Shown: positions 5,538 to 56,816 of the stretch, one piece after another
Layout: each line of letters opens with the position of its first letter
Position numbering within the stretch: position 1 is the stretch's first letter
Assembly (NCBI GenBank): GCA_038087875.1
Contig: CM075989.1
Coordinates: forward strand, 21,640,001-21,704,000
DNA from: Malacoraja senta
Lineage: Eukaryota
DNA: 64,000 nt
Direction: 5' to 3'
Notes under the pieces: model-generated
The model's input: the letters and a program-made list of their open reading frames with translations, nothing else
What the model was told of the DNA's origin: nothing
Database searches by the model: none
Made by a program: the position numbers and the translations under genes

Positions 5538-6476
5538 TTTTAGTTTAGAGATACAGCGCGGAAACAGGCCCTTTGGCCCACCGAGTCCGCACCGACCTGT
5601 GAGTCAAGTCACGTGAGCTTATTGTCATGTGTCCCTGATAGGACAATGAAATTCTTGCTTTGCTTCAGCACACAGAACATAGTAGGCATTGACTACAAAA
5701 CAGATCAGTGTGTCCATATACCATAATATAAATATATACACACATGAATAAATAAACTGATAAAGTGCAAATAACAGATAATGGGTTATTAATAATCAGA
5801 GTTTTGTCTGAGCCAGGTTTAATAGCCTGATGGCTGTGGGGAAGTAGCTATTCCTGAACCTGGTTGTTGCAGTCTTCAGGCTCCTGTACCTTCTACCTGA
5901 AGGTAGTAGGGAGATGAGTGTGTGGCCAGGATGGTGTGGGTCCTTGATGATACTGCCAGCCTTTTTGAGGCAGCGACTGCGATAGATCCCCTCGATGGAA
6001 GGGAGGTCAGAGCCGATGATGGACTGGGCAGTGTTTACTACTTTTTGTAGTCTTTTCCTCTCCAGGGTGCTCCAGTTGCCGAACCAAGCCACGATGCAAC
6101 GGGTCAGCATGCTCTCTACTGTGCACCTGTAGAAGTTAGAGAGAGTCCTCCTTGACAAACCGACTCTCCATAATCTTCTCATGAAGTAGAGGCGCTGATG
6201 AGCTTTCTTGATAATTACATCAATGTTCTCCCCCACACACTGACGCCATTCTACACACACTAGGGACAATTTTACATTTACACCAAGCCAATTAACCTAC
6301 TAACCTGTAGGTCTTTGGAGTGTGGAAGGAAACCGAAGATCTCGGAGAAAACGCAGGCAGGTCACGGGGAGAAGGTACAAACTCCGTACAGACAGCACCC
6401 GTAGTCAGGGTCGAACCCAGGTCTCTAGCGCTGTAAGCGCTGTAAGGCAGCAACTCTACCGCTGTGCCATCGTACT
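5538..6476 (-). mobile_element. HE1-like SINE interrupted by a Rex1-type LINE fragment
   Basis: SINE tail at 5538-5600, SINE body and head at 6228-6476. Confidence 0.75.
5601..6227 (-). mobile_element. Rex1/Babar-clade LINE 3' fragment
   Basis: KKAHQRLYFMRRL...FYRCTVES...HPGHTLISLLPSGRRYRSL...RFRNSYFPTAIRLLN, typical Rex1 post-RT C-terminus; 3'UTR ending in a short repeat tail. Confidence 0.85.
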
Positions 6477-6571
6477 GCGCCAAACAGTTGCTGTTGAGAA
6501 TAATGTGACATGAGATCAAATCAATGAGTCCCACAGAAAAACCTGAACCTGATTTGTGCTCCACCTTAAGA

Positions 6572-6710
6572 CTTCTTCTTCTTGCGTATGGCGTGCACAG
6601 CCTAAAGTTGAAAGACAACTTGTTCTGTTTGATCTTCTGTTTGTGCACGCCAGGTTGATTGCATTCGTCGAAACAGGGTGGACCACGTGAAGGTTGCAAT
6701 CTCCCACCCC
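6572..6710 (-). mobile_element. Short non-autonomous retroposon-like element with a 5' HDV-like ribozyme and (AAG)4 tail
   Basis: Ribozyme fold at the 5' end, 11-bp perfect inverted repeat in the body, (AAG)n 3' tail; no clear TSD. Confidence 0.65.
6657..6710 (-). ncRNA. HDV-like (CPEB3-type) self-cleaving ribozyme fold with minimal P4
   Basis: GGGGTGG(P1) GA GATTGCA(P2) ACC(P3) TTCACGT(L3) GGT(P3') CCACCCT(P1', G1-U wobble) G T-TTCG-A(P4) CGAA(J4/2) TGCAATC(P2'); every helix pairs. Confidence 0.85.
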
Positions 6711-6834
6711 CATGAGGAATCATTTTGGAAGATTAGTAATGGAATCATATTCTTTTCTCAACTGCCAACTTTAAAACATTGTCAATAATCTTTTGAAGTC
6801 ATAAGGTATTTGTGCCATAAAGGTCTCAAGTATT

Positions 6835-7175
6835 TTAGGTCAGTTTAGTTAGCTTATCGTCACGTGTACCGAGGCACAGTGAAAGGCTTTTGTTGCGTGC
6901 TAACCAGTCAGCAGAAAGACAATACATGATTACAATCAAGCTGATCACAGTGTCGATACAGGATAAAGGGGATAAGTTTAGAGCAAGATAAAGTCCAGTA
7001 AAGTCTGATTTAAGATAGTCCGAGAGTCTCCAATGAGGTAGATGGTAGGTCAGGACCGCTCTCCAGTTGGTGAGGGGATGGTTCAGTTGCCGGATAACAG
7101 CTGGGAAGAAACTGTCCCTGAATCTGGATGTGTGCGTTTTCGCACTTCTGTACTCCTTGCCTGACGGGGGAGGAG
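6835..7175 (-). mobile_element. Rex1-like LINE 3' end
   Basis: Minus strand encodes PSGKEYRSAKTHTSRFRDSFFPAVIRQLN, followed by a 3'UTR shared with 33838-34128 and 59490-59745. Confidence 0.7.
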
Positions 7176-7448
7176 ATCAAACCGTTGTCTCTTAAAGGAA
7201 AAGTTGAACTTATTTTGGGCTAAGATTAAGTCTTCATTAGGAATCATTGCAAAAGATTAGTAATGGAACTATATTATTTTTGTTCTATATTATTGTCTAT
7301 TCTATATTCTTTATTGGTCTATATTATCATCATCGTATTCCACACAGATATTGTGGGCTGAAGGGACTGTTCCTCTGTTGGTACTATTCTATGTTCTATG
7401 TTCTACATCGAAGGAAGCCAATGAACCCAAGAGAAACTCGTGCACACA

Positions 7449-55583: not shown

Positions 55584-56158
55584 TAAATCTTTATCTTTTT
55601 TTGGTATAAGCGTTATTGTTGATTCTGCTAAAGTTTCTGGTAGTTTATTTTCGGTATAAGCCTGCGTGTATAAGTTGAGTAATCTTGGTACAAGTGACTC
55701 CTGAAATCGTTTATAAAATTCATTACTAAAACCATCTGGTCCTGGGGTCTTCCCATTTTTCAATGAGTTTATTATTTGTTTTAATTCTTCACTAGTAATC
55801 CGTGCTCCTAATTCCTCTTGTTCTAAACTATCCAATTTAGGGAGGTTGCAAATATCTAAAAAAATTGTAATTTTACTATCATCTGTATTTATTTTAGTTG
55901 TGTATAAATTATGATAAAATTGGGCAAACCTTTTATTAATATCCTTTGGTAATGTTAGAAGCTCACCCTTATCAGATTTAATTTTAGTGATAGTATTTTC
56001 CTTTTCTTGTTGCTTCAGTTGCCTCGCTAATAATTTATGTGGCTTATCCCCAAATTCGAAGTGTGCCTGTTTTGTAATTTGGAATAGTCTTATTACTCTA
56101 CCCGATAATATTCTATTGAGTTTATATTTCAATAAGGTTATCTTATTATGTTTATCTA

Positions 56159-56816
56159 ATAGATTGCTTGGGTGGGTATACAGATATTGGCCTACTGGTG
56201 GTAATAATATCAAATTATACCATTCAGTGTTTCCCAGGCTACACCACGAGGAGATTTCTGTATTAGCAGCTGGTATTGCCCCCCCCCCCCCACCATATCA
56301 GATGATCCATCGTCGCCCAAGACGAGCGGAGAGCACAGGAGATCGATACCAGGCACCCCCTGCACGGACACACAGCACCTCCACCCCGACTGAAATCCAG
56401 AGCCAGTTTCTTGCAGACAGTCCCACCTCTCCAGACAACCAAAGAAACAGCAAGGACCAACATCTGGAAAGATGAATGGAACCAGCTCAACACACGAGCC
56501 CACGACTGGATGGAGAGAGGAATCACTCCGACTGAATGCCTCGCCAGCGGGCACGACCTCCCATGGCCAACCTGGAAGACCCTCAACAGATTACGAGTGG
56601 AGCAGGGGAGGTGTAAAGCACTTCTGAAAGCATGGAACTACCAGGCAGAAGACACATGCAGCTGTGGAGCAGTACAGACAATGTCCCACCTACTGGAGTG
56701 TGACGACGCCCCCCAGTGCAGCCCCCAGGACCTGGCTGAACCGACTCGACCAGCTGTGACCTGCGCCAGATACTGGCAGAACGACATCTGAGATTGCAAC
56801 GGACTCGAAGAAGAAG
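56159..56816 (+). mobile_element. Ingi/Vingi-like LINE 3' fragment nested in the L1
   Basis: AGIAPP..; WKTLNRLR..GRC..CSCG..QTMSHLLEC; (GAA)n tail; 14-bp TSD ATTATGTTTATCTA at 56145-56158 and 56817-56830. Clade assignment is from motif memory. Confidence 0.75.

Follow-up and report, generated by a model that had tools for sequence, protein, structure and literature searches.

A 139-nt Internal-Deletion Derivative of a Vingi-like LINE, Headed by a Predicted Minimal HDV-like Ribozyme, in the Genome of Malacoraja senta

Results

The Element and Its Surroundings in the Window

The analysed stretch of DNA (the window) comprises 64,000 nt of Malacoraja senta (assembly GCA_038087875.1, contig CM075989.1, positions 21,640,001 to 21,704,000 of the forward strand). 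An element of 139 nt lies on its minus strand and consists of the following parts:

6572..6710, minus strand: whole mini-retroposon, 139 nt, subfamily A, no target-site duplication (TSD) at this copy; extent taken from the genome copies and their ends
6657..6710, minus strand: predicted minimal HDV-like ribozyme, 54 nt; from a descriptor, with the same fold in different letters in six families
6632..6710, minus strand: 5' part, inherited from the start of the parent LINE (element nt 1–79); about 91–92% identity with parent copies
6642..6652, minus strand: 5' arm of the end-to-end stem, from the parent 5' UTR; 8 bp in the parent versus 11 bp here
6611..6631, minus strand: linker of about 21 nt, unmatched in parent copies, carrying an inverted copy of the parent 3' CAACTT
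6572..6610, minus strand: 3' part, inherited from the end of the parent LINE (element nt 101–139); 89–97% identity with parent copies
inside 6572..6610, minus strand: last two codons, stop codon TAG (6604–6602), 3' UTR and tail, all parent-derived
6589..6599, minus strand: 3' arm of the end-to-end stem, from the parent 3' UTR, by comparison with the parent
6572..6583, minus strand: (AAG)4 microsatellite tail, of the same type as in the parent, from the sequence

The 11-bp inverted repeat (6589–6599/6642–6652), the inner stem AAGTTG/CAACTT (6605–6621) and the TACGC followed by (AAG)4 (6588–6572, minus strand) were all read from the sequence where the original prediction had placed them. The inner 6-bp stem results from the inverted CAACTT copy in the linker. 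The 3' 77 nt of the element folded better than shuffled sequences (z = −3.1; 1 of 200 shuffles as good). For the whole 139 nt, the minimum free energy (MFE) fold did not differ significantly from shuffles (z = −0.95), which is expected because a pseudoknot lies outside what MFE folding can model. A scan for Pol III boxes found no A box at up to one mismatch and no exact B box in the element, in agreement with the earlier reading, and returned one B-like 9-mer with one mismatch.

No TSD was found when the flanks of the window copy were checked, again as noted before. These flanks (about 6505–6790) are duplicated locally at about 7160–7300 with about 75% likeness, and the second copy lacks the element. 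This duplicate suggests that the window copy may have inserted with the loss of a few bases, although it is too diverged to settle the matter. Just downstream of the element (about 6230–6480, minus strand) lies a SINE with a tRNA-like head and A- and B-box-like motifs, which presumably resembles a common shark/ray SINE.

Copies, Ends and Subfamilies in the Genome

The observation that only one copy is visible holds for the window and fails for the genome, which contains thousands of copies. A DNA search of the genome yielded 2,550 first-look candidates, and the 40 that were scored were 96–100% identical to the element. Exact matches to the middle 23 nt numbered 5,207 genome-wide, a lower bound on copy number, compared to none for the reversed pattern. 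The copies are dispersed, and the 139 nt hold no ORF.

We assessed ends and TSDs in the first 30 matches by position, picked on the middle pattern alone. Alignment started at nt 1 in 21 of the 30 copies and at nt 1–5 in 29, so that 5' ends pile up at G1 (6710), one of the checks proposed with the original prediction; a single copy was 5'-truncated. TSDs, the other such check, flanked 25/30 copies, with a mismatched-flank null of 0–1/30 over 10 rounds. Among the 30 best-scoring loci, 23 had TSDs. TSD length was about 8–15 bp, tails were variable, and insertions were nearly always full length. Judged by eye, most TSDs sit directly against G1 or G2, without an extra base in between. The original prediction had named single-copy status, or copies extending well past the ribozyme, as outcomes that would speak against it; neither was observed, as the family is multicopy and its copies stop there.

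The family comprises at least three subfamilies, each about 3–4% diverged from its own majority: 2.7% for subfamily C (n = 7), 3.8% for subfamily B (n = 21) and a median of 3.3% for subfamily A (n = 28). With 521 exact matches, the subfamily that includes the window copy is the smallest. Some copies differ from their majority by just 0–2%.

Contigs in all four runs from four other organisms cover exactly 6572–6710, with loose ends piling up at both boundaries; in three of these runs, loose ends also occur at 6610, resembling the parent 3' end. In the three runs guessed to be RNA, contigs extended beyond the 5' end as frequently as beyond the 3' end (13 and 11, 29 and 16, and 77 and 57, respectively). 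Run-on past the 5' end weighs little against cleavage, because the contigs carry neither strand nor true ends and the RNA status of the runs is a guess.

Vingi-like LINEs and the Parent Family

A Vingi-like fragment with a (GAA)n tail had been noted in the same window. It is a copy of a LINE family that we designate W:

56158..56816, plus strand: family W copy, with an inverted extreme 5' end joined to the 3' end of the ORF; 13-bp TSD at 56145–56157/56817–56829
about 56158–56270, inverted, within the W copy: W 5' end with its own long-P4 ribozyme

The Vingi-like nature of the fragment and the shared tail type were thus borne out, but W is a sister family and not the parent. As a candidate parent, the fragment (56159–56816) was rejected, for it shares merely an 11-mer and the tail type with the element. 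Family W is 3.1 kb long, has ends and a 3' UTR different from those of the element, and consists of copies about 97–98% alike. The W copy sits inside an antisense LINE fragment that is presumably L1-like by its motifs.

A search with the family W endonuclease domain recovered about ten related Vingi-like families. One of them, family P (L100, L101, L102, L104 and L113; about 3.1 kb), begins with element nt 1–79 (about 91–92% identity) and ends with element nt 101–139 (89–97%). Both element-matching ends are shared by L100, L102, L104 and further copies, L102 and L104 each carrying the two. The element is therefore a short, internally deleted derivative of P with a 21-nt linker. As both ends are shared with P, it is a SIDE and not a new class. 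The proposed analogy to trypanosome RIME/SIDER elements was right as to kind and can be taken further, to direct derivation from one LINE family by internal deletion.

Family P encodes APE and RT Pfam domains (Exo_endo_phos_2, RVT_1) and is colinear with two intact ORFs, of 986 and 1002 aa, from sister families. An uninterrupted 1002-aa APE+RT ORF of family B lies at L081:731–3739 (minus strand). RNase H gave no match in two full sister ORFs and five parent fragments, the C-terminal part of the parent being placed by colinearity alone. None of the P copies examined had an intact ORF; all were broken. P copies differ by about 5% from their majority (21 copies), and the 3' 28-mer of P has 141 exact matches in the genome. 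By exact matches, the element is about 37-fold more numerous than parent 3' ends, with patterns of different lengths. The element family looks mostly old, of an age similar to or slightly younger than that of the parent.

By its structure and motifs, P fits Vingi and is called Vingi-like here; we take the same motifs to rule out an RTE affiliation. On this basis, the partner proposed as a Vingi/Ingi- or RTE-type LINE appears to be Vingi-like and not RTE. Vingi elements are described as having a compact single APE+RT ORF without RNase H (PMC13708176).

The Predicted Ribozyme

The descriptor assigns the following parts, all on the minus strand, to the candidate ribozyme:

6710–6704/6681–6675: P1, 7 bp, G1·U wobble first
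6701–6695/6663–6657: P2, 7 bp
6694–6692/6684–6682: P3, 3 bp
6691–6685: L3, 7 nt
6674–6668: 7-nt stub replacing P4
6667–6664: J4/2 CGAA, with the candidate catalytic C at 6667

The first 54 nt of the element match the HDV-like layout without mismatch and in nested-pseudoknot order, and the predicted cut falls just 5' of 6710 (G1). A strict HDV-like descriptor hit one site on both strands of the window (128 kb), at 6710, and none in 30 Markov-shuffled windows. The canonical P4 helix is absent from the element, its place being taken by the 7-nt stub. This reduction is probably why Rfam misses the ribozyme: neither the window nor the element gave anything at the gathering score, and the element gave nothing at E ≤ 10 either. 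HDV-like ribozymes without P4 are reported to cleave in vitro (PMC10879173).

The descriptor also matched 9 of 62 Vingi-like LINE loci, representing six families, in which the letters of P1, P2 and P3 differ yet pair; the remaining, descriptor-negative loci were truncated or mutated. The layout P1/P2/P3/L3/C-N-A-A is common to all six families. The three subfamily-level changes in the ribozyme of the element are all compatible with the fold (unpaired nt 8, A-U to G·U at nt 32, and variable J4/2 nt 45). The candidate catalytic C was kept in 28 of 30 copies. The C together with all helices was kept in 14 of 30, as expected after neutral decay. Predicted HDV-like folds thus head at least six Vingi-like families in this genome, the version in the element being without P4. 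Vingi is missing from the six LINE clades that Kojima 2018 names as carrying ribozymes (PMC5786205). If the prediction is true, Vingi would join these clades, an animal genome would contain thousands of copies of a P4-less HDV-like ribozyme, and sense-strand intronic copies could cut host pre-mRNAs.

Pairing between the Ends

In parent P, the same arms form 8 bp between the region behind the ribozyme and the region before the tail, 3 kb apart. The 11-bp stem of the element is thus predicted to be a 5'–3' end pairing inherited from the parent. End pairing was evaluated across eight families by matching 40 nt behind the ribozyme with 40 nt before the tail (anchors picked by eye, that of family I uncertain). 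Own-family pairs averaged −19.8 kcal/mol versus −12.3 kcal/mol for cross-family pairs, and the true assignment was the best of 40,320. When all available copies and windows of 25–50 nt were used, it ranked 1–4 of 40,320. The pairing was clear in families W, B, P, G and C and weak in E; in the same eight-family test, it was not seen in D and I. A stepwise tightening over time from 8 to 11 bp was not established, and the idea was dropped because the parent-like subfamily C (2.7%) is no more diverged than subfamilies B or A.

Inverted copies bear on the position of the RNA 5' end. Of 30 P copies picked by their 3' end, four had an inverted piece in the visible 1.5 kb, and in all four this piece originates within the RNA's first 412 nt, with over 2 kb separating it from the forward piece. 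The W copy in the window has the same inverted-5' form as these. Usually, L1 inversions have adjacent breakpoints, unlike the inverted 5' pieces of Vingi-like copies. The origin of all inverted pieces from the RNA 5' end suggests that this end is held close to the insertion site, which agrees with the end pairing. Loci of Vingi-like copies with inverted RNA-5'-end pieces include L202, L204, L225 and L228, and some among L103–L120.

A Second Mini-Family

A second mini-family (about 170 nt plus an (AAG)n tail) carries its own predicted P4-less ribozyme of the same layout. Its stub has the same length of 7 nt behind a different P1/P2, its ribozyme is CPEB3-like, and a stem of up to 12 bp occupies the same place as the end-to-end stem of the element, likewise in agreement with the end pairing. 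Of 16 copies, one had no 3' end, and TSDs were found in 12 of the other 15. There were 28 exact matches genome-wide (loci L251, L253 and L257–L270, e.g., G000:C20:3600463-3600525).

Likeness to the Mammalian CPEB3 Ribozyme

The 5' ribozyme of family B scored 45–64 bits on the Rfam model of the mammalian CPEB3 ribozyme (RF00622, cut-off 35), and sister Vingi-like families as a group scored 37–64 bits. Other Vingi-like families reached 19–29 bits only, so the fold does not force the match. A genome search with the model gave 59 scored candidates and 51 matches, 39 of them above the cut-off. The 40 inspected of the 51 matches, selected as they were by likeness to the model, are 5' ends of families B, H, J and K, mostly inverted against Vingi-like ORF ends, and of the second mini-family. 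CPEB3-like loci include L081–L086 and L231–L250 (e.g., G000:C21:8958106-8958189 and G000:C1:380487059-380487137). In L081 and L082 (family B), the first ~25 nt of the ribozyme are tandemly repeated at least four times at the 5' end.

Five decayed copies of family J scored 39–51 bits, and the J column majority, taken by eye from printed alignments, matches about 59 of 67 CPEB3 ribozyme positions, the unconstrained P4 stem included. No full-length J element was found, the search giving just four matches, all short. The element itself has the L3 of the CPEB3 model and did not match that model (Rfam, E ≤ 10).

A 2021 study states that the CPEB3 ribozyme was not found outside mammals (PMC8233481). 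A Vingi remnant, X12_LINE, is reported from the human genome (PMC5753468), and transposon domestication has already been suggested in general as a source of vertebrate intronic ribozymes (PMC7761336). Our scores suggest descent of the mammalian CPEB3 ribozyme from Vingi; the likeness may also reflect convergence, or a donor from another clade.

Discussion

Origin and Mobilisation of the Element

We consider it probable that the element is a non-coding internal-deletion derivative of a Vingi-like LINE that frees its 5' end by a predicted minimal HDV-like ribozyme and was copied by the parental RT. In the element, the first 79 and the last 39 nt of the parent flank a linker of 21 nt. A copy would be transcribed by Pol II, most likely through host read-through. 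The double pseudoknot is then predicted to fold and to cut just 5' of G1, leaving an exact 5' end. The region behind the ribozyme would pair with the region before the tail through the stem received from the parent, so that the element RNA would present both ends like a full LINE RNA. Acting in trans, the parental APE/RT protein probably recognises the 3' UTR with its (AAG)n tail and starts reverse transcription from a nick. The outcome is, in nearly every case, a full-length insertion with a variable tail and a TSD of about 8–15 bp. Mobilisation in trans by the parent protein is inferred from the shared ends and overlapping ages.

The same origin and trans-mobilisation would be compatible with an exact 5' end set by a Pol II promoter inside the element, within its first 60–80 nt, the P4-less ribozyme being slow or vestigial. 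Pr77, reported as both promoter and ribozyme in L1Tc/ingi, provides a precedent (PMC4035085); the P4 stub is unusually short, sequence upstream of G1 is not depleted in the contigs guessed to be RNA, and the pile-up of 5' ends at nt 1 suits either mechanism. We nevertheless regard a promoter-defined 5' end as unlikely, given that subfamily changes keep the ribozyme fold, that P4-less HDV-like ribozymes are reported to be active in vitro (PMC10879173), that the second mini-family has the same 7-nt stub with a different P1/P2, and that TSDs mostly abut G1/G2 with no extra base by eye. Promoter and ribozyme roles can coexist.

Slightly less likely still is that an element built from parent ends was mobilised mainly by another Vingi-like family that is younger or has more copies, such as W, via the shared (AAG/GAA)n tail. 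Such a helper would suit the 37-fold excess over parent 3' ends (by patterns of different lengths), the element copies only 0–2% from their majority beside a broken parent at about 5%, and the W copies, which are about 97–98% alike and have the same tail type. However, the 39-nt 3' end is specifically that of the parent and is kept in all subfamilies, the W 3' UTR is different, and element and parent overlap in age. For a short, abundant sequence with an internal inverted repeat, one might also imagine a MITE-like DNA element or a Pol III SINE whose ribozyme fold arose by chance. The probability of this is negligible: the repeat is internal rather than terminal, tail and TSD lengths vary, A and B boxes are missing, the descriptor null is zero, and both ends match a LINE, by which a MITE or Pol III SINE is ruled out.

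A broader proposal, which we favour only slightly over its negation, is that Vingi RNAs are closed-loop templates, with ribozyme and end pairing as the whole cis-acting unit, captured and tightened by the 139-nt RNA, and that Vingi was the source of the CPEB3 ribozyme. If true, the memory-linked human CPEB3 ribozyme would have arisen when the 5' end of an inserted Vingi was domesticated, and the sister-family ribozymes are candidates for its outgroup and origin. The element also defines how small a natural template of a Vingi-type enzyme can be. The Vingi clade is now used in RNA-based gene insertion (PMC13708176), and the predicted ribozyme and end pairing are directly testable cis-elements for gene-insertion templates.

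Comparison with Known Systems

Among the matches listed in a literature search that covered papers, with limited coverage, none dealt with a ribozyme in Vingi, with pairing between Vingi ends or with descent of CPEB3 from Vingi. The details that may be new are the small size, the P4-less ribozyme, the end pairing (significant across eight families and clear in five), the second mini-family of the same layout and the CPEB3 link. The kind itself is already known from SIDEs and bipartite non-autonomous Vingi elements; the novelty would lie in details, and the family may be uncatalogued in Repbase/Dfam.

By testable criteria, the element is a SIDE, or bipartite non-autonomous LINE: both ends and the tail come from one LINE, there is no ORF, and the copies are dispersed with TSDs and variable tails. 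A tRNA, 7SL or 5S head with A and B boxes, the criterion for a Pol III SINE, was not found in it. It resembles R2Dwi_SIDE and the other R2/R1 SIDEs of Drosophila in joining a 5' HDV-like ribozyme to a LINE 3' end around a middle unmatched in the parent, with target-primed reverse transcription, which is inferred here (PMC3414825). It differs in being 139 nt long rather than 529 bp as in R2Dwi_SIDE, dispersed rather than site-specific for rDNA, derived from an APE (Vingi-like) rather than an RLE (R2) parent, and headed by a P4-less rather than a long ribozyme (PMC3414825).

NARTc/RIME with Pr77 (L1Tc/ingi) are likewise internally deleted from an Ingi-related LINE and have an HDV-like ribozyme at +1, but they are trypanosome elements whose parent has RNase H, and Pr77 is about 77 nt long, with a P4 helix and proven promoter activity (PMC4035085). 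They are not known to have an end-to-end stem. Bipartite non-autonomous Vingi elements, such as Vingi-1_EE derivatives, similarly consist of 5' and 3' parts joined by internal deletion, with no Pol III head (PMC5786205). The predicted ribozyme resembles minimal HDV-like ribozymes (theta, drz-Mtgn) in the absence of P4 and the position of the catalytic C first in J4/2; nearly all of those described come from gut phages, where they often neighbour tRNAs (PMC10879173), whereas here the fold heads an animal retroelement. Finally, the CPEB3 ribozyme is a single-copy intronic host ribozyme (PMC8233481), unlike the element, which is a multicopy mobile family.
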